Shown in pieces: positions 2-12,077 of a stretch of DNA of 12,495 nt; positions within the stretch are counted from its first letter, which is position 1, and each line of letters starts with the position of its first letter. Under the pieces are notes generated by a model that made no database searches, was not told where the DNA came from, and saw only the letters and a list, made by a program, of their open reading frames with translations. The stretch covers positions 1-12,495 of the forward strand of contig JAZRWA010000089.1 in assembly GCA_045599485.1 (NCBI GenBank), read 5' to 3'. The DNA comes from Clostridia bacterium. Its GTDB lineage: Bacteria; Bacillota; Clostridia; Christensenellales; Aristaeellaceae. Position numbers and translations under genes: made by a program.

Positions 2-766
2 GAAGATGCTCATAAGGCGGCGGGAGAAAGATTGAAGGACTATCCCGGTTTTCGACCGATTCACGGTAACTTTCATGACATAAGAGAGCTTCTGCCTGAA
101 GGCACTATGCTCGACGGCGGTCTTTTGGATCTGGGTGTTTCCTCCTATCAGATCGATACGCCCGAAAGAGGATTCTCTTATCATGAAGATGCGCCGCTGG
201 ACATGCGCATGGATCGTTCACAGGGAGTCACCGCGGCCGAATGGCTGGCGATGCAGGATGAAAAGACCATCATGAACGCACTGTATGATTACGGTGATGA
301 GAAATGGGCGGCCCGCATCGCCAAGGTGATCGTGGAAAGACGTGCAGCAAAGCCCATTCTGACCACAACGGATCTTGTCAGCTGTGTGGATGCGGCCATA
401 CCGAAGGCAGTGCGCCGTAAGGACGAAGGGCATCCGGCAAGAAGGACGTTTCAGGCGGTACGTATCGCCGTGAACGACGAGCTGGCTCCTTTGTAGCAGG
501 CGCTGAACGACTGGATGAGCATGATTCGCCCCGGCGGCAGGTTGTGTGTGATCACTTTTCATTCGATTGAAGACCGAATTGTGAAGCATGCGTTCAAGAC
601 GATGCAGAATCCCTGTATCTGTCCGCCGAAGGCTCCGATCTGCACCTGTGGGAGAAAACCAATTGCCAGGGTGATGGGCGGCGGCGCCATCAAGGCTTCT
701 GCCGAAGAATTGGAAAAGAATTCACGCGCGCACAGCGCAACGCTGCGCGTCGCCCAAAAACTGTAA
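2..766 (+). CDS. rsmH: 16S rRNA (cytosine1402-N4)-methyltransferase RsmH/MraW, 5'-truncated at the window edge; one reading frame with an in-frame TAG at 494-496
   Basis: ORFs 32-496 and 515-766 share a frame (both 2 mod 3) and the frame is open from position 2. Upstream of the TAG: [37 protein letters not shown]. Downstream: [20 protein letters not shown] and the Cys-rich CICPPKAPICTCG tail. All are typical RsmH motifs. Ends in TAA at 764-766. Confidence 0.88.
494..496 (+). other. In-frame TAG inside rsmH (candidate sense codon)
   Basis: GAG CTG GCT CCT TTG TAG CAG GCG CTG; the same frame carries conserved RsmH sequence on both sides. Confidence 0.8.
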
Positions 767-2552: not shown

Positions 2553-3254
2553 ATGATAAAATACGAAAGTGACCATTACATATTTAACTACAATAAAGGA
2601 ACACAGGCAGAACGGGATATTTTGACCATTGCCAAGGGGCAGGAAGACTGCTTCCGTTATATCTGCAAAGTTCTGGACGCGCAGCCTGACTTCAAAATTG
2701 AATACTTCCTCTGCGATACACCCGAAAAAGTGGGACATATTTACGGCGATGATGACCCCTGCAACGCCTTTGCGGCGCCACCAAACAAAATCTATGCAGT
2801 GTATAACGAGCAAGTGAAGTGCATCGGTTTCCATGAGGATGTTCACCTTATCAGCTATCTGATCAACCGCCCCGATCCTCCCGCCATTCGGGAAGGTTTG
2901 GCCATGTACTTTGATCGCAAGTGGTGGGGAATCCATAATCTGGATTGGTGCGGATTCTTCCTGAAAACCGAACGGTATATTTCCGTTGCAGCATTGCTGA
3001 CCAGAAAAGTGTTTTTCGAGACGGACTGTACCATATGCTATCCGATCATGGGAGCCTTTACGGATTATCTGATTGCAACCTATGGTCATGCAGCCTATCT
3101 GGAAATGTATAAGCAGCAGGATATTCCGCAGGCCATGAAGGCAGTATTCGGTAAATCTCCGGAGGAATTGAACGCAGAATTTATCGGCTATGTGAAGCTG
3201 TTCCGCATTGACCCGGAACTGGAAAAGCGGATGGAAGAATTGTTTTGCCAGTAA
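2553..3254 (+). CDS. Hypothetical protein with an HExxH motif, possibly peptidase-MA-like (gluzincin-type)
   Basis: ORF 2376-3254; I place the start at ATG 2553, preceded by AAGGGA. It contains FHEDVH (HExxH), followed about 19 residues later by REGLAMYF, which resembles the third-ligand Glu segment of Peptidase_MA_2-type proteins. No signal peptide is evident. TAA stop. Confidence 0.5.
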   Translation: MIKYESDHYIFNYNKGTQAERDILTIAKGQEDCFRYICKVLDAQPDFKIEYFLCDTPEKVGHIYGDDDPCNAFAAPPNKIYAVYNEQVKCIGFHEDVHLISYLINRPDPPAIREGLAMYFDRKWWGIHNLDWCGFFLKTERYISVAALLTRKVFFETDCTICYPIMGAFTDYLIATYGHAAYLEMYKQQDIPQAMKAVFGKSPEELNAEFIGYVKLFRIDPELEKRMEELFCQ

Positions 3255-3463: not shown

Positions 3464-4771
3464 TTATCGGCGTAATCCCTTCGGATAATGGTTTTTGATC
3501 AGGTCATCGGAGATTTTACCGAAGCCAAGAGTATAGCCCTGCAGGGAAACGGTGCAATAGCCTTTTAGCGTTCCGTTGTAAGGAATGGCATCGCCGTGGA
3601 TATAAGCCGCTGCTTCCGCTTCGGTGAGGGCAATTTCCTTTTTGCTTCTTTCTGCTAAAGCCAAAGCGTGATTTGGAACAAAATTCTTGCCCTTGAGTTC
3701 ACCCACATGAAACCCTGCACGGAGGACCTTGATTCCCTTCAGATCGGGGATGATGGCAGGGATGAGCGTAAGCTGATTGCCGAAAAGAGCGTTGGGCATC
3801 AACTCATAGCCAAGTTCGTCCATAAAAGATTTGACAGGCGGAAGGCTGCGTTGATCGGGAGCAGGCAATGTGCCATAAGCTGACGCAAATTTATCAGAAT
3901 CGATGTTCTTTTGAAGAAGGGCAATAAAATGGCCCTCTCCGCGGATTTTGTGCGGCCAGAGATGCAGCATGCCATCCGAAGAATCAGCTGTCTACGGCAA
4001 GGAAAATGGCACCAATGAGAAATCGGGATGACGGGTAAGAAACGCTGTAATGGATTGATCGTTTTCGAGGGTATTGAAAGTGCAGGTGCTGTACACCAAG
4101 GTGCCGCCGGGTTTAAGCATATCGGCTGCGGCATCCAGGATACCGGCCTGTCGTTCGGCACAGTGAGCGGGGGAAGCTTCCGACCATTCCAAACGAGCCT
4201 GCGGATCCTTGCGGAACATGCCTTCTCCGGAACAGGGTGCATCGACAAGGATGCGGTCAAAGAAATAGGTCCATTTCAATCGGAGCTGATCGGGATATGC
4301 GGAAGTTACGATACAGTTTTCGATCCCCATGCGTTCAATGTTGGAGGAGAGAATCTGAGCACGAGACGGAATAGGCTCATTGGATACGAGCAGAGCGGGG
4401 TGAAAGGACATGGCTATTTGCGTGGATTTTCCACCGGGTGCGGCACAAAGATCCAGCACAGTATCGGTGGGCTTTGGGGCGAGTACAGCAGCGGCAGCCA
4501 TAGCGGATGGTTCCTGAATGTAATAAGCCCCTGCATCATGAAGGATCGTAGCTCCGGCGCGTGATGTGTTGGCCAGATAATATGCATGGGGAACATAAGG
4601 AATCTTTCCGATAAGATCTTCGGAAGGCATAGGAGTGCGGTCGTCCCGGAAGCGGATACCGCGGGTGTGCGGATCGAGATACGTTTTCAGGAAGGCTTCG
4701 GTTTCGTTTCCAAGCTGGGTACGGATGTTTTCAATAAAAAGAGGAGGTAACGCATGCAGTGTATCACTCAT
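3464..4771 (-). CDS. RsmB/RsmF (NOL1/NOP2/Sun) family rRNA m5C methyltransferase with an RsmF-type C-terminal domain; in-frame TAG at 3992-3994
   Basis: ORFs 3992-4801 and 3464-3970 share a frame, with 7 sense codons (TADSSDG) between them. The N-terminal part has LDLCAAPGGKS (SAM motif I), DAPCSGEGMFRKDP (motif IV) and YSTCT (motif VI). After the TAG comes LHLWPHKIRGEGHFIALLQK, typical of the RsmF C-terminal domain. I chose the start at 4771 (MSDTLH) because GGAGGT lies upstream. TAA stop. 435 codons in total. Confidence 0.8.
3992..3994 (-). other. In-frame TAG inside the RsmF-like methyltransferase gene (candidate sense codon)
   Basis: Minus strand TTG CCG TAG ACA GCT; the catalytic domain lies upstream and the RsmF C-terminal domain downstream in the same frame. 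Confidence 0.8.
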
Positions 4772-4797
4772 TTTGTTACCTCCGTAAAATGATTTGA

Positions 4798-5274
4798 TCA
4801 TGTGTTGGAATCGGAATAAATCTTGCTGCGATAACGGCGAACGGGGACTTCGGTTTGCGGAGGCAGTATCTGATCCTGCTGCTCGGGAGCATCATTGGAA
4901 GAAGCATCTGATGGAAGCTCATTCTGCTGATACAGATCGGCAACGCCTGTCTCGTTAAAGGAATAGCCGCTGATGCCGTCGGTATATCCGCCTTGAAAAC
5001 CGCCTTGATAGAAGGCATCGTCATAGGCGGAGGCAGACGGAATTTCACGATGAGGTTTGCCAATCAGAAAGGGACGCCAACGCAGCACATAGACAGTCAG
5101 GTCTGCCGCACAGCCAAGCAGCAGCAACAGGAGAAATGCGACAAACCAGTAACGGTTCAGCCACGACAGAAACGAACCGGAACCGCTGCCGCTGAATGCT
5201 TGCAGTAACTCCTGAAAGAAACTGCGCAGCCAGCCGAGCAGAGAAGAAATTAAAGAAGTGGCAAATCTGTTCAT
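4798..5274 (-). CDS. Hypothetical small membrane protein
   Basis: 158-aa ORF with one clear hydrophobic helix (YWFVAFLLLLLLGCAADLTVYVL) and a low-complexity G/Q/S-rich tail. It is tightly packed between cdaR (stop 5277) and the RsmF-like gene. TGA stop. I recognise no family. Confidence 0.55.
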   Translation of the reverse strand: MNRFATSLISSLLGWLRSFFQELLQAFSGSGSGSFLSWLNRYWFVAFLLLLLLGCAADLTVYVLRWRPFLIGKPHREIPSASAYDDAFYQGGFQGGYTDGISGYSFNETGVADLYQQNELPSDASSNDAPEQQDQILPPQTEVPVRRYRSKIYSDSNT

Positions 5275-5276
5275 GG

Positions 5277-6317
5277 TTATTCGTTGGAGACGATTTCAAT
5301 CGTGACAGTCAGGGAATCGGCGCTGCAGTAGATGACGCCGGTTGGTTTGCTGAGGGTGACATTTTTCTGGAAGGAAGCGGTGGCGCCGCTGATGTCGATT
5401 TGACTTTCGATATACTCGATCAGATGCAGTTCATCCAGGGAATTGAGCAGTTTTTCGTTTGCGGCGAAAAGAACGGAAGAGGGTTCCACTGTGATACGCT
5501 TGAGCGCATAGCCTTCAGCCGGCTGACCACAGGTGAGGTCGGCGGTGTTGATGACCAGCGATTTGGTGGGATAGATCGTTTGCTCAACAATCAGGCTGTC
5601 CAGCAGGACCGACTCGGAAGTGACCTCGATGAGGGCAGAATCAACGGTGCTCTGGTCGGAGGAGATCAAACGGAAGGGAACAGCAGTGCGCTCGTTTCCG
5701 GAAGAACCGCTCAAAAGGGACAAGTCATAATCGGCAACACAGCGGATGATATTACGTACACGGGAAAGCGGACCGGAGACCGTAACATAGAGCGGGTCAA
5801 CGGCGGCGGAGGTGGCATACATTCCTTCGGGCAGTTGACCGCTGGTCTCAAGGCGCACAGGAATACGGCTGCGGGTGACATACTCGTCCACCTGCAGGGT
5901 GACGGTGCCGATGCTGACTTCCGTGACCGTTCCATAGGTGGAGGAATTGGTGGAGAGAATGTTGAGAGTTTGCGTACCGGTGCCGCGAATTCTGGACAGA
6001 TCAATACGGACATTGAAGTTGGAGGCCGAGACGGTGTTGTAGACATTCTGCGGTACTTCTGCTTTGAGGCGGATAAGCGGCAGATTGTCGAGACCATCGA
6101 CAACGATATAGCCGTTGCGGCGGAGCGTATCGGAGCCGATGATGTTGATGCTCACATCGTTGAAGGTTTTTTCACGGGTCAGAGAGCTGTCGGCGGTGAT
6201 GAGACCGCTCCACAGGCAGACGGCAAGCAGAAGGGACAAAAGCTTCCACGGCCAGTTGTGGATTAAAAACTGAAGAGCCTGCTTCAAATACGGCTTTGGT
6301 TCAAATGTCTTTTTCAT
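5277..6317 (-). CDS. cdaR: YbbR-domain protein CdaR (regulator of the diadenylate cyclase CdaA)
   Basis: Lies immediately downstream of cdaA. It has an N-terminal TM helix (WKLLSLLLAVCLW) followed by repeated beta-rich YbbR-like modules (patterns of the form VxVxGxxxxL ... DLS). I place the start at ATG 6317 (MKKTFEPKP) with a GGGAGA RBS. TAA stop. Confidence 0.78.
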   Translation of the reverse strand: MKKTFEPKPYLKQALQFLIHNWPWKLLSLLLAVCLWSGLITADSSLTREKTFNDVSINIIGSDTLRRNGYIVVDGLDNLPLIRLKAEVPQNVYNTVSASNFNVRIDLSRIRGTGTQTLNILSTNSSTYGTVTEVSIGTVTLQVDEYVTRSRIPVRLETSGQLPEGMYATSAAVDPLYVTVSGPLSRVRNIIRCVADYDLSLLSGSSGNERTAVPFRLISSDQSTVDSALIEVTSESVLLDSLIVEQTIYPTKSLVINTADLTCGQPAEGYALKRITVEPSSVLFAANEKLLNSLDELHLIEYIESQIDISGATASFQKNVTLSKPTGVIYCSADSLTVTIEIVSNE

Positions 6318-7140
6318 GCTTCTATCTCCCTTTGAACCATTTGAAGGCGGCGGAAACGGGGGAAGGTTTTTTGCTGCGATACATGCCGTGGAGAATGTTT
6401 TCCAGTGAGGCACTATCAAGATGACGAGTCAGTTTTCCGTTGTGAGCGGTACTGATGATGCCGGTTTCCTCACTGACGATCAGCACAATGGCATCGGTGG
6501 TTTCGGAAACACCGAGCGCAGCGCGATGCCGGGTGCCGAGATCACGGCTGATGGAGCTGGATTCACTGAGGGTGAGGAAGCAGGCACCGGCGATGATGCG
6601 TGTATCACGGATAATGACCGCGCCATCGTGCAAGGGGGTGTTGGGTTCAAAGATGTTTTCCAACAGGGGAGCAGAAATGACGCTGTCCAACCGGGTACCG
6701 GTCTCGATGATCTCTTTTAAGCCGGTCTGCTGTTCAAAGACGATGAGCGCACCGACACGGCGGCGTGAAAGGTTGTTGAGGCAAAGGATGATTTCACTGA
6801 CGATGCGGGCGTTTTCTTCTTCGTCATTGAGAAAATGACGAAATTTGGTGCCGCGGCCAACCTGCTCGAGAATGCGGCGCAATTCGGGCTGAAAGAGGAT
6901 AACAAGTGCGACAGCACCGTTGCTGACGATCAGGTTCATGACCCAGGACAGCGCAGTCAACCCAAGCATGTTGGAAACCAGACAGGCAAGCAAAAGCACG
7001 ATGAGACCCTTGACAACTTCACTGGCGCGGGTGCCGCGAACAAGCATCAGGAGCTCATAGATCAAAAAAGAAACGACGATTATATCAAAAATGTCAGTCA
7101 GAGACGGACGATTAAAAATGTTCCAAAGAAAGTTTTGCAT
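6301..7140 (-). CDS. cdaA: Diadenylate cyclase CdaA (DacA); a TAG at 6322-6324 lies six codons before a TGA at 6301-6303
   Basis: Three N-terminal TM helices plus a DAC domain with DGAVII, GTRHRAALGVSETTDA and VSEETGIIS. Under the standard code the CDS is 6322-7140. With TAG as sense it gains KHEKDI and ends at TGA, overlapping the cdaR start. Confidence 0.88.
6322..6324 (-). other. TAG near the end of cdaA (either a stop or a sense codon followed by a 6-codon tail)
   Basis: Minus strand GGG AGA TAG AAG CAT GAA AAA GAC ATT TGA. Confidence 0.45.
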
Positions 7141-7294: not shown

Positions 7295-8371
7295 TCAGTT
7301 GAGACGATCGAGATAAGTGGTGACCTTGGCGGCGGAGATCCATTCATTGACCGCTGCATTGTAGGCAGCATCCTGCGCCGCGGCGAGCATTGAATCGGAA
7401 AGCTGAGTACGGGCGAAGTCCAGATCGGCCGTGGCTTCAGCAACATCGTCCACATACTGCACGAGCACAGCCGCGTTTTCGGTCTCCACCACGGGGGAGA
7501 CAGTCCCCCTCTCGGTAAGAGCCATGGCGGCGTTCACAATGGCTGCGTTCACATCGGTGCTGCCATTGGTGACGACATAGGAAACGGGAGCATCGGACAA
7601 AGCATCGAAGGATTCGCCGGCGGCAACACGTGCAGCCAGTGCATCGGCATCCTCTTTGGCAACGGAAATGACCTTGATGCTGCGGTAACCGGCGGGGGTG
7701 TAATAGGTGAGCTCACCTGCGTTGGCGGCTTTGCCGTACGCGGCGGGGTCAGCTTCGTAGGCGGCCTTTTCGGCGGCAACTTTTTCATCAAGGGCGGCCT
7801 GCAGATCAACATCGCTGACGGTCACGTTTTCGGTTACTGCAGCCTTGAGCAGGTTAAGGGACTTGGTGCCCTTGACAGTTGTGAGGTAATAATCAAGCGT
7901 ATAGCCGCTCTGATCAGCTGTGGTCTTGACGGCTTTGTCGAGGGCTTCACCGGTCAGCTCGGAGGAGGCAAAATCGCTGGCTTTGATGGATTCGAGCATG
8001 GAATCATAGGAAGCCTGCGCCTCGGCCGCGATGGCGGCTTCATCTTCGGCAGAGAACTGATCGAAGCCTTTTTCGCTGATCTTCTGAGCCAGTACCATGC
8101 TCTGAATGAAACCGCTTACGGTCTCGTTCAGCACAGCGGTCTCGTCAACGGTGCCGTCGCCGCCAAGCTGAGACATCAGCTGGGCGTAGTAGGATTCGAC
8201 ATAATAGTTATAGTTATACTGATAGTTGAATTCGTTCTTGGTGACGATTTCGCCGTTGACTTCCAGAATGGTCTGCATGCCATCCACAACACTGTCGATT
8301 TTTTCGAGAGAGCAACCGGAGAGCAGAACCAGAGCCGCAAGTACGACGGCAAGCAACATTTTCTTGTTCAT
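7295..8371 (-). CDS. PrsA/SurA-like lipoprotein (foldase/chaperone-like; SurA N-terminal-type domain)
   Basis: MNKKMLLAVVLAALVLLSGCS is a signal peptide with the lipobox LSGC. The body is Ala/Glu-rich and helical with a parvulin-like central segment (YYTPAGYRSIKVISV). I place the start at ATG 8371. TGA stop. Confidence 0.65.
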   Translation of the reverse strand: MNKKMLLAVVLAALVLLSGCSLEKIDSVVDGMQTILEVNGEIVTKNEFNYQYNYNYYVESYYAQLMSQLGGDGTVDETAVLNETVSGFIQSMVLAQKISEKGFDQFSAEDEAAIAAEAQASYDSMLESIKASDFASSELTGEALDKAVKTTADQSGYTLDYYLTTVKGTKSLNLLKAAVTENVTVSDVDLQAALDEKVAAEKAAYEADPAAYGKAANAGELTYYTPAGYRSIKVISVAKEDADALAARVAAGESFDALSDAPVSYVVTNGSTDVNAAIVNAAMALTERGTVSPVVETENAAVLVQYVDDVAEATADLDFARTQLSDSMLAAAQDAAYNAAVNEWISAAKVTTYLDRLN

Positions 8372-8405: not shown

Positions 8406-8434
8406 ATTATAGTTGATTCGGAAGAGCATATCAA
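8406..8434 (-). promoter_or_regulatory. Candidate sigma-A promoter for the lipoprotein gene
   Basis: On the minus strand: TTGATA (8434-8429), a 17-nt spacer, then TATAAT (8411-8406). It lies about 35 nt upstream of ATG 8371. Confidence 0.5.
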
Positions 8435-9321
8435 GATAATTTTTTGTGAACATATTCGCGCAGCAGACCATCACAGTTGGTTCGTTCGGAAACGATCAGC
8501 TATGACAGGTGGAGGAAGTCCATCACTGCGCAAAGGATTGCAAGCCCGGTTGGGAGAATGTTGCCGCGTCCCTTCGGGCAGCCGGGAATCATTTCACGTT
8601 CCAAAGGCGTGAGAGGAGCGATCTGCGTCAGAAGCTGCCTTACCTGGTCGCGGTGAAGATGAACTCCTTCAGCAGCATCGGTACGGGCAATCATCCTTGC
8701 GGATGCCGTTCCGGTGCCACCGACAAGGTATACGGCAGAACCCGCAGGAAAGGAGGCGGGCACAGAGGGCTCGTTCATGATGATATTACGCGCAGCCGCA
8801 AGGGCTTTTTGGACATCGGCGGCTTCGTGGATCGGGCAGACTGAAAATAGCCGGGAAGCTCCCAACTGCAGAGAAAGACATCGGGGGTGCATGTCGGTAT
8901 CGTAGTAAGCCAGTTCGGTGGATCCGCCGCCGATATCGATCACGGCACCGGGGGCATACCCTGCTGATCCGAGCAGGGAAAAACGGGCTTCTTCCGCACC
9001 GGAGATGATCTGGAGAGGGAGCCCGCAGGCAGAAAAAATGGCGTGGGCGAGAGCATCGGAGTTTTCGGCGTCGCGGACAGCGCTTGTGGCGTAAACACCA
9101 ATCAACACGGAATGCTCCTGCGCGGCGATGGCTTGAAGACGACGGATATCCTCCGCGGTTTGCTCAATCGTTTCCTGCGGAAAACGGCGGCTTTGGCTCA
9201 AATGAAGGAAGAGACGGGATTCGATACGATGACGGGTTGGATTGCTGAGGGAAGTGTCGGTATCCGCGCAGAGCATACGCGCCGAATTGGAACCGATAAC
9301 GATGACGGCGATCCTGTTCAT
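8431..9321 (-). CDS. Ppx/GppA-family phosphatase (exopolyphosphatase / pppGpp phosphohydrolase-like); in-frame TAG at 8500-8502
   Basis: IGSNSARM and DIGGGSTEL are ASKHA-fold phosphate-binding motifs. ORF 8500-9321 stops at TAG, and the frame then continues for 22 codons (LIVSERTNCDGLLREYVHKKLS) to TGA at 8431-8433. This gives a typical length of about 296 aa and a GLLxE-like domain end. Confidence 0.78.
8500..8502 (-). other. In-frame TAG inside the ppx/gppA-like gene (candidate sense codon)
   Basis: Minus strand CTG TCA TAG CTG ATC, followed by 22 further sense codons and then TGA. Confidence 0.7.
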
Positions 9322-9671
9322 AGCTGATCACTTTCTACGACATACATTTCAACCGTCTGCGTGCTGTCGCCAAGCGCCTACGGGTTGGCGATGATAAAAC
9401 GAATTTCTCCGGGAACACTGTAACCATACATTTCACGGGCTTTGGTCATGATGTATTCGGTGGTCTGCAGGATGGAGACCTCGGCGGAAAGCTGACGGGC
9501 TTCCAGCGTTTGTTTCGCGCTGCGCTATTGTAGCGACGCGTATTCCTGCTGCATGGCGGCGGAGTCGCGGTGGACGCGGATGATCATGAGCAAGCCGATG
9601 GCAAAAATGACAGACAGAACACAGACTGCGAAAAGCGGAGATACGGTTTTTTGTTTCAGTCGTTCGGCCAT
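9318..9671 (-). CDS. Septum formation initiator (FtsB/DivIC family) protein; two in-frame TAGs at 9525-9527 and 9378-9380
   Basis: Absent from the ORF track because the TAGs cut it into pieces shorter than 60 aa. My manual translation is MAERLKQKTVSPLFAVCVLSVIFAIGLLMIIRVHRDSAAMQQEYASLQ-TAG-RSAKQTLEARQLSAEVSILQTTEYIMTKAREMYGYSVPGEIRFIIANP-TAG-ALGDSTQTVEMYVVESDQL-TGA. It has the expected TM helix, coiled coil and ARExxGYxxPGE motif. A GGAGGA RBS precedes ATG 9671. The TGA overlaps the ppx ATG as ATGA. Confidence 0.65.
9378..9380 (-). other. Second TAG in the divIC/ftsB-like gene (a stop under the standard code; if sense, a 19-codon tail follows)
   Basis: Minus strand AAC CCG TAG GCG CTT; the frame stays open to a TGA that forms an ATGA overlap with the ppx start. 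Confidence 0.5.
9525..9527 (-). other. In-frame TAG inside the divIC/ftsB-like coiled coil (candidate sense codon)
   Basis: Minus strand CTA CAA TAG CGC AGC; the conserved ARExxGYxxPGE motif lies downstream in the same frame. Confidence 0.75.
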
Positions 9672-11324: not shown

Positions 11325-12077
11325 TTATTCGCCCGGGAACATTTGGGCGAGACCTTTCTGAATACCGGTATCCCAGAACCACCAGTCATGGACGCCGTCC
11401 CACTCCTCGTAGCTGCAGGGAATGTTTTTGGTATGGAAAAAATCATGGAGCTTGCGGGACATGCGGAGCAATCCGTCCTCGGTACCGCAGGCCATATAGA
11501 GCTTTGGCAGCTTCTTTCCTCCCGCAAGGGCTTTTTCGGTGAGCTTTTCGATGTCGTTTTCTTCACCGAAGGGCAGTTCGGGACCGAGAATGGCCCTCCA
11601 TTCATCCTGCTATGAACCTGCGACATCGTCGCGCCAAAGGCTGCGATCCATGGGATAGAAGCAGGAAGAGAGAGCGATGCATCCGGCATATTTATCCGGG
11701 GCTGTGGCGACACATTTCATGGCACCATAACCGCCCATGGAAAGACCGCCGATATACAGGTGCTCGGGATCGGTCGGAATGCGGAATTCCGCGGCCATCT
11801 TGGCGGGAAGCTCTTCAAAAACATAAGTGAAGTATTTAAGACCGTAGGCCATATCGATGTACCAGGAACGCTGCACCTACGGCATGACGACAGCAAGACG
11901 ATATTTATCAGTCAGACGACCGATGGCAGTACGGCGGACCCAGGCATCGCAGTTATCACTGAGACCATGCAGCAAAAGAAGGGTACGCTCAGGTGCGGCA
12001 TGGTCGGGAAGAAGAACATTGACGTGTGTATACATGGACAGACTGTCTGCCCGAATGGTTCCGTGATAAAAAGACAT
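11325..12077 (-). CDS. Esterase-family alpha/beta hydrolase (esterase D / tributyrin esterase-like); two in-frame TAGs at 11877-11879 and 11610-11612
   Basis: Three contiguous same-frame segments. Segment 1: MSFYHG...LLLLHGLSDN...AVVMP. Segment 2: VQRSWYIDM...GGLSMGGYGA, containing the GxSxG nucleophile. Segment 3 is my manual translation: QDEWRAILGPELPFGEENDIEKLTEKALAGGKKLPKLYMACGTEDGLLRMSRKLHDFFHTKNIPCSYEEWDGVHDWWFWDTGIQKGLAQMFPGE, carrying the candidate catalytic Asp and His. A GAGGTG RBS precedes ATG 12077. TAA stop at 11325-11327. Confidence 0.8.
11610..11612 (-). other. Second in-frame TAG inside the esterase gene (candidate sense codon)
   Basis: Minus strand GGT TCA TAG CAG GAT; the candidate catalytic Asp and His segments lie downstream in the same frame. 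Confidence 0.8.
11877..11879 (-). other. In-frame TAG inside the esterase gene (candidate sense codon)
   Basis: Minus strand ATG CCG TAG GTG CAG; it lies within the conserved VVMP-x-xxRSWYxDM block. Confidence 0.8.

Follow-up and report, generated by a model that had tools for sequence, protein, structure and literature searches.

From sequence comparison, without protein-level evidence, it is inferred with good confidence that an uncultured lineage of Clostridia no longer uses UAG as a stop codon and reads it as an amino acid, most probably glutamate. If UAG stands for Glu in this lineage, the Ppx/GppA-family gene (ppx) of the stretch of DNA analysed here (12,495 nucleotides, hereafter the window) is therefore an intact gene of 296 codons with Glu at position 274 and a TGA end. 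That the change from stop to Glu is genome-wide in a genus-level clade of gut- or rumen-type Clostridia, with RF1 lost and a tRNA-Glu(CUA) gained, is considered fairly probable. The comparisons described below establish, for the clade sequences at hand, that UAG is a sense codon and that UAA and UGA terminate. The most likely interpretation is that UAG = Glu in a narrow clade represents a previously undescribed variant of the bacterial code.

The ppx gene

The minus strand of the window carries an open reading frame of the Ppx/GppA family (9321..8503) followed by a TAG (8502..8500). Translated from 9321 to 8431, the frame starts with MNRIAVIVIGSNS, runs through 273 codons to AVMDFLHLS, continues with the TAG (codon 274) and 22 further codons (LIVSERTNCDGLLREYVHKKLS; 8434..8499), and ends at a TGA (8433..8431), for a total of 296 sense positions. 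A sequence-only reading of the window had claimed this continuation of 22 codons to the TGA, without naming the strand; its sequence and coordinates are correct, on the minus strand. The total of ~296 aa that it considered typical of short family members also agrees with the database, where a search among 5.8 billion proteins gave many homologues of ~294 aa that span the 296-aa query completely (100%).

The same reading had placed a family-typical domain end in the extension and had proposed a profile alignment with PF02541 as a check. The 273-aa product without the extension scores 115.9 bits and covers model positions 15–262 of 285, whereas the 296-aa product, with X at the TAG, scores 124.8 bits (+9 bits) and covers positions 15–283; the model end thus falls in the post-TAG segment. 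Both products lie above the gathering score of 27 bits and belong to the family; a complete two-domain Ppx/GppA module with the model end reached is obtained only if the TAG is read through. The family motifs GSNS, DIGGGS, GGTG and the C-terminal N-x-D-G-x-L are all present, and every invariant column is matched (G10, S11, N12 and S13; D129–S134; G201, G202 and T203; N282, D284, G285 and L287). The last four residues, invariant in an alignment of 48 sequences, lie in the extension, together with the nearly invariant V277, T278 and R280. In the alignment with a solved exopolyphosphatase (PDB code 8jgu), which extends to residue 328 of 339, the structure reads LGAREVTVSEGALREGMLIE opposite lhlsXlivsertncdgllre, with a Glu facing the TAG. 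The motif VS...REG.L, to which the earlier reading had pointed, is real and is seen in this alignment across the TAG.

Codon differences between the window and its closest relatives comprise five synonymous and two conservative nonsynonymous changes (L/V and L/F) in the 22 post-TAG codons, as compared with a synonymous to nonsynonymous ratio of about 70:40 in the 273 upstream codons, and the tail therefore evolves as coding sequence. Taken together, the Pfam gain, the full-length homologues, the invariant residues of the extension and the alignment across the TAG support the view that the gene (8431..9321) continues past its TAG, and that the 22 codons encode the conserved end of domain II, at the family-typical end of the two-domain module. 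The TGA overlaps the −35 element of the next gene, as had been claimed: a sigma-70-like promoter of the downstream PrsA-like gene, TTGATA-17 nt-TATAAT (8434..8406, minus strand; 11 of 12 matches), contains the ppx TGA inside its −35 hexamer.

Other in-frame TAG codons in the window

With TAG treated as sense, the window contains 16 genes with 3,920 codons, namely rsmH (partial), rsmI, coaX, a hypothetical gene, rsmF, a membrane protein gene, ybbR, cdaA, a prsA-like gene, ppx, divIC, rimI, tsaB, tsaE, an esterase gene and nrdG (partial). Eight in-frame TAG codons are found in six of these genes, with no in-frame TAA or TGA. The genes terminate with TAA (8) or TGA (8) and never with TAG, although this absence is only weakly significant by itself (about 0.1 at the 13% TAG use of the outgroup).

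On the plus strand, codon 165 of the partial rsmH gene (2..766) is a TAG (494..496) that is replaced by GAA in the related contig L001 and in the outgroup contig L103, and by Glu in E. coli RsmH (PDB code 3tka). The other TAGs are on the minus strand. The TAG at codon 270 of rsmF (gene 3464..4801; TAG 3992..3994) lies inside the PF01189 match, with the CI and PUA domains downstream. That of cdaA (gene 6301..7140; codon 273, 6322..6324) is near the C-terminus, and the KHE tail that follows it is also found in the sister and outgroup CdaA proteins. The DivIC-like gene (9318..9671) contains two TAGs, at codon 49 (9525..9527), which is CAG in three related contigs (L102, L002 and L003), and at codon 98 (9378..9380), which aligns to the Glu of an NPEAL motif in both outgroups. 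The esterase gene (11325..12077) likewise contains two, one at codon 67 (11877..11879), common to the window and L001, and one at codon 156 (11610..11612), which is GAA in L001 and Glu in PDB 4rgy. Single Pfam domain matches run across the TAGs in RsmH (PF01795, residues 3–253), RsmF (PF01189, residues 105–297), DivIC (PF04977, residues 21–96) and the esterase (PF00756, residues 16–243). Read through its second TAG, DivIC consists of 117 aa, and its gene overlaps the ppx start by ATGA; DivIC of two outgroup genomes is 118–124 aa long, with the same overlap. Downstream of the TAG, synonymous and nonsynonymous codon differences in divIC amount to 6:2. No common sequence context was found around the TAGs.

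Several further features of the window were observed. The overlap of the divIC TGA with the ppx ATG, at 9318–9321 on the minus strand, recurs in the outgroup contigs L105 and L106 (10001–10004), and the two genes therefore look translationally coupled across the group. The cdaA TAG is located just upstream of the ybbR start codon (6320–6318); with TAG as sense, cdaA ends at a TGA (6303..6301) and overlaps the ybbR start by about 20 nt. A gene for a hypothetical protein of 233 aa (2553–3254, plus strand) lies between coaX and rsmF; it has no alignable counterpart in the syntenic contig L001 or in the other compared loci, an apparent indel in contigs that are collinear elsewhere. An Rfam scan of the window returned no RNA family.

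Related contigs

The closest database relatives of the window Ppx (84–85% identity) are called as fragments of 192 and 198 aa, with the same ...GLS end. Five contigs from different samples constitute the clade: the window (NCBI), L001, L002 and L003 (three Logan contigs) and L102 (ENA ERZ27247129). L001 (SRR27361835, 14 kb) is syntenic with the window, and L002 and L003 are from two other Logan runs; the datasets with clade relatives are SRR27361835, SRR21150928, SRR17543910 and ERZ27247129. In all four relatives, ppx codon 274 is likewise a TAG, followed by the conserved tail of 22 codons and the TGA found in the window. In addition, all four carry a second in-frame ppx TAG at codon 72, which is GTG in the window. 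The relatives add TAGs in cdaA (codon 108), rsmF (codon 289), rimI (codon 37), tsaB (codon 147) and nrdG, such that 14 distinct in-frame TAG sites are found across the five contigs, without in-frame TAA or TGA and without frameshifts. The sample is small (about 37 kb), and all 14 sites are from one syntenic locus. That TAGs also occur in no fewer than five further window genes and in the four related contigs indicates that the cause is a changed meaning of TAG in the lineage, rather than a peculiarity of ppx.

Gene callers that use code 11 split the TAG-containing genes of the clade contigs. The nearest named relatives are MAGs of uncultured Clostridia or Clostridiales from human gut and rumen; the order-level placement of the lineage is uncertain because the NCBI labels of these relatives range from Christensenellales to Oscillospiraceae. 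Among the GTDB representative genomes, no relative of the window Ppx above 31% identity was found (with a Ppx profile, generic motifs dominated the result and the best match reached 41%), and a CoaX search of the same genomes returned only standard-code relatives of at most 88% identity. In the JGI metagenome collection, no clade member was identified with Ppx as query. A search for longer clade contigs with the NrdD fragment of L001 retrieved only Oscillospiraceae-like NrdD fragments of 87–90% identity; these homologues are C-terminal pieces with recurring lengths of 378, 424, 448 and 491 aa, among others. One contig fetched from this search (L186) was rejected as a clade member, as it is non-syntenic and appears to be an error-prone long-read assembly; many of its genes, including those of ribosomal proteins, are split in a manner that resembles frameshifts rather than recoding.

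Phylogenetic extent

The TAG-as-sense reading frames of 48 loci were aligned to the called proteins of standard-code relatives, and only TAGs inside the alignments were counted. The five clade contigs contain 5 in-frame TAGs in 2627 aligned codons, 7 in 2784, 6 in 1825, 3 in 679 and 3 in 552. No in-frame TAG inside a homology-validated alignment was found in 44 other loci, which include a contig of the sister lineage (L101; 1,589 aligned codons) and, from GTDB, 39 representative genomes with CoaX identities of up to 88%. Outside the clade, a single TAG seemed to lie in frame (L155), but it is a true terminator, over which the alignment had been extended too far.

The sister contig (JGI 3300020112, contig Ga0207380_10563637) encodes a CoaX that is 91% identical to that of the window; RUG11909 also belongs to the sister lineage. 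In this contig, TAG ends one of seven genes, at a position matching the C-terminus of the window orthologue. In the outgroup genome (L103 and L105; CoaX 83%), TAG ends 5 of 39 genes. Thus, the absence of in-frame TAGs and the presence of a TAG terminator in the sister contig suggest that the code change is younger than the split of the two lineages. Since both the sister and the outgroup genomes lack in-frame TAGs, the change is inferred to be recent, at about the genus level. The gene that ends with TAG in the sister contig encodes a membrane protein (3810–4328); its orthologue in the window ends with TGA.

Identity of the amino acid

Eight of the TAG sites are variable within the clade, and six of these (rsmH165, rsmF289, cdaA108, rimI37, tsaB147 and esterase156) have GAA or GAG as the alternative; at the other two, it is CAG (Gln; divIC49) and GTG (Val; ppx72). 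In the outgroups, Glu is found at rsmH165, rsmF289, cdaA108, ppx274 (L105) and divIC98 (both outgroups). TAG289 of RsmF corresponds to the Glu of the GEGHF motif, which is Glu in all three aligned solved RsmF structures (PDB codes 3m4x, 3m6u and 2frx). Summed over the comparators of the TAG sites, the BLOSUM62 scores are 59 for E, 27 for Q, 20 for D and 10 for K, and the BLOSUM90 scores are 66 for E and 27 for Q. Mutational proximity does not explain the Glu pattern, because the window genes contain more CAG (92 occurrences), a single transition away from TAG, than GAG (77); moreover, half of the Glu counterparts are GAA (179 occurrences), two steps from TAG.

Other residues are aligned at several sites: Gly at rsmF270, Lys or Arg at cdaA273, Ser at ppx274 in the outgroup L106, Ala, Asn or Ser at esterase67, and Asp of a pyruvate formate-lyase (PFL)-activating enzyme at the nrdG TAG. 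Codon 72 of ppx, TAG in the relatives, is CAG in both outgroups. As judged from these alignments, the assignment to Glu is well supported, but it rests on few sites; the same reading most probably applies to rsmH, rsmF, cdaA, divIC and the esterase gene of the window. If it is correct, TAG accounts for about 3% of the Glu codons (8 versus 179 GAA and 77 GAG).

Alternative explanations

A TAG that is sense but specifies Gln (as in code 15), pyrrolysine or another residue is unlikely, even though ppx codon 72 is CAG in both outgroups, divIC codon 49 is CAG in three clade members, and most TAG sites fall in variable, polar columns in which Gln or Lys would also be tolerable. Phages that reassign UAG, furthermore, usually read it as Gln (PMC9523058). 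Such a reading is at odds with the Glu codons at six of the eight within-clade alternatives despite the greater abundance of CAG, with the TAGs at the conserved Glu of RsmF GEGHF and DivIC NPEAL, and with the BLOSUM62 sums given above for E, Q and K; no methylamine methyltransferase or pyl gene context was seen in the available contigs. The expectation for phage code 15 is not fulfilled, with Gln at only two of the aligned sites, and a phage origin of the window is contradicted by its bacterial housekeeping genes and its synteny with Clostridia MAGs. Eukaryotic contamination is contradicted as well, since TAA, which code 30 reassigns too, serves as a terminator in the window; selenocysteine was rejected because it uses UGA.

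The TAG could also remain a stop that is merely leaky, with a suppressor tRNA competing against RF1, or near-cognate decoding, giving both truncated and full-length proteins. Such an ambiguous code cannot be excluded without RF1 data, as the status of RF1 is unknown, and truncation at cdaA codon 273 and divIC codon 98, both near the C-termini, would perhaps be tolerated. However, TAGs are also located in the middle of essential catalytic domains (rsmH165, rsmF270 and rsmF289, cdaA108, tsaB147, and ppx72 of the relatives), where frequent termination would be costly; none of the 16 terminators is a TAG, the TAGs share no context, and the sequence downstream of every one of them is conserved. These observations make leaky termination improbable. 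It is scarcely credible that the TAGs are nonsense mutations, marks of pseudogenes or sequencing and assembly errors, with Ppx ending at residue 273. All that is known of the organism comes from short metagenomic contigs, and code-11 callers do split these genes, yet the same TAGs recur in five assemblies of different samples and sources (NCBI, three from Logan, ENA), the in-frame stops are exclusively TAG (14 sites, without TAA, TGA or frameshifts), and the affected genes are housekeeping genes whose downstream substitutions are of the purifying, coding type.

Comparison with known genetic codes

Bacterial reassignments of UGA comprise code 4 (UGA to Trp; Mycoplasmatales and some endosymbionts) and code 25 (UGA to Gly; Gracilibacteria/Absconditabacteria). 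These resemble the situation in the window lineage, as each is a stop-to-sense change in a bacterial lineage, with in-frame stops in conserved genes and no use of the codon as terminator, and each is expected to go with a new tRNA and the loss of the release factor that reads the codon. The window lineage differs in that the codon is UAG rather than UGA and that RF1, not RF2, is expected to be lost. Nor is the genome AT-rich and reduced, its GC content being about 52.5%. According to Shulgina and Eddy (2021, PMC8629427), UGA is the codon concerned in all known reassignments of a bacterial stop. A screen from 2026, covering about 2.7 million assemblies, has no bacterial TAG reassignment in its list and cautions that inferences on stop codons must be backed by phylogeny and tRNAs (10.64898/2026.04.02.715157). 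In the literature searched, no description of a bacterial change of UAG to Glu was found; most subscription journals were outside this search, and absence is not proof.

Reassignment of TAG to Gln is documented in gut phages (PMC9523058). The code 15 phages (crAss-like and Lak) share with the window lineage a gut-associated sense TAG and an expected suppressor tRNA(CUA) as decoder. However, in these phages the code is switched during infection of standard-code hosts and the residue is Gln, whereas the window contains chromosomal housekeeping genes (rsmH, rsmI, coaX, cdaA, tsaB/E and rimI) syntenic with MAGs, and the inferred residue is Glu. UAG as glutamate is known from peritrich ciliates (code 30) and Blastocrithidia nonstop (code 31), and UAR to Glu is documented in eukaryotes only (e.g. 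Blastocrithidia, PMC12153298). These codes belong to eukaryotic nuclei and reassign UAA too; the window, in contrast, is bacterial, and TAA ends 8 of its 16 genes. Decoding of UAG as pyrrolysine in some Firmicutes and Deltaproteobacteria likewise involves translation of in-frame UAG in a bacterium, but it is concentrated in methylamine methyltransferases and retains UAG termination, whereas in the window lineage the TAGs are spread across housekeeping genes that are unrelated to one another, and they align with Glu, with Lys scoring poorly. No pylTSBCD genes were found in the available clade contigs of 12–14 kb. The architecture predicted for the window lineage (no RF1, RF2 for UAA and UGA, and UAG read by a supplied tRNA) is that of the engineered E. 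coli strains C321.deltaA and RFzero; these are laboratory constructs of which the window lineage would be a natural counterpart, with RF1 loss so far only predicted.

In the literature searched, all reported bacterial stop reassignments concern UGA, and UAG is sense only in phages (as Gln), in users of pyrrolysine and in some eukaryotes. A free-living-type bacterium of intermediate GC content with UAG = Glu would add a new code to those known from nature. It would be the first cellular prokaryote in which amber is assigned to a canonical amino acid, and a natural analogue of RF1-deleted recoded E. coli. It would also offer a naturally RF1-free system, together with a GluRS/tRNA-Glu(CUA) pair of natural origin. 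The reassignment would have been caught close to its origin, as the sister lineage still appears to use the standard code. Because the sister genomes, with CoaX 83–91% identical, appear to be standard-code, the clade would permit a test of how reassignment starts, by codon capture or through an ambiguous intermediate. Splitting of genes under code 11 explains the fragmented and under-called database entries and lowers MAG completeness scores, which may be the reason that no representative of the clade is present in GTDB. The finding also bears on the conflict of codes between gut phages and their hosts.

Predicted decoding machinery

Bacterial termination depends on two release factors, RF1 for UAA and UAG, and RF2 for UAA and UGA. 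In the proposed mechanism, RF1 (prfA) would be missing or inactive, with termination at UAA and UGA left to RF2, and UAG would be decoded by a dedicated tRNA-Glu with anticodon CUA. Both steps are predictions drawn from how bacterial termination works and from reassignments already known. Such a tRNA may have arisen, for example, from a tRNA-Glu(CUC) of the outgroup type by a single change of C36 to A. With Glu inserted, the Ppx peptide across the TAG would read ...AVMDFLHLSELIVSER.

No tRNA gene is present on the clade contigs, which cover one syntenic locus only. A CUA version of the outgroup tRNA-Glu, searched for in the GTDB representatives with the pattern CCTCTAAAGG-N9-12-GGTTCGAATCC, gave 12 matches, none of them from Clostridia. 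As suppressor tRNAs, the five matches that could be annotated with ARAGORN were rejected, being variable arms of tRNA-Ser(GCU) from Hyphomicrobium, Thermodesulfobacteriota and a proteobacterium; the other seven are unannotated or unchecked. Within the GTDB representatives, the pattern is found almost only in Hyphomicrobium; in the matches that were checked, it falls in the long variable arm of tRNA-Ser(GCU).

The tRNA-Glu(CUC) gene of the outgroup is located at 7861–7936 of contig L105. It is adjacent to a gene for tRNA-Gln(CUG) (7784–7936 for the pair), and yabP-yabQ-divIC-ppx follow about 2 kb downstream. The TAG clade has a rearranged gene order upstream of divIC, namely rimI-tsaB-tsaE-esterase-nrdG-nrdD.
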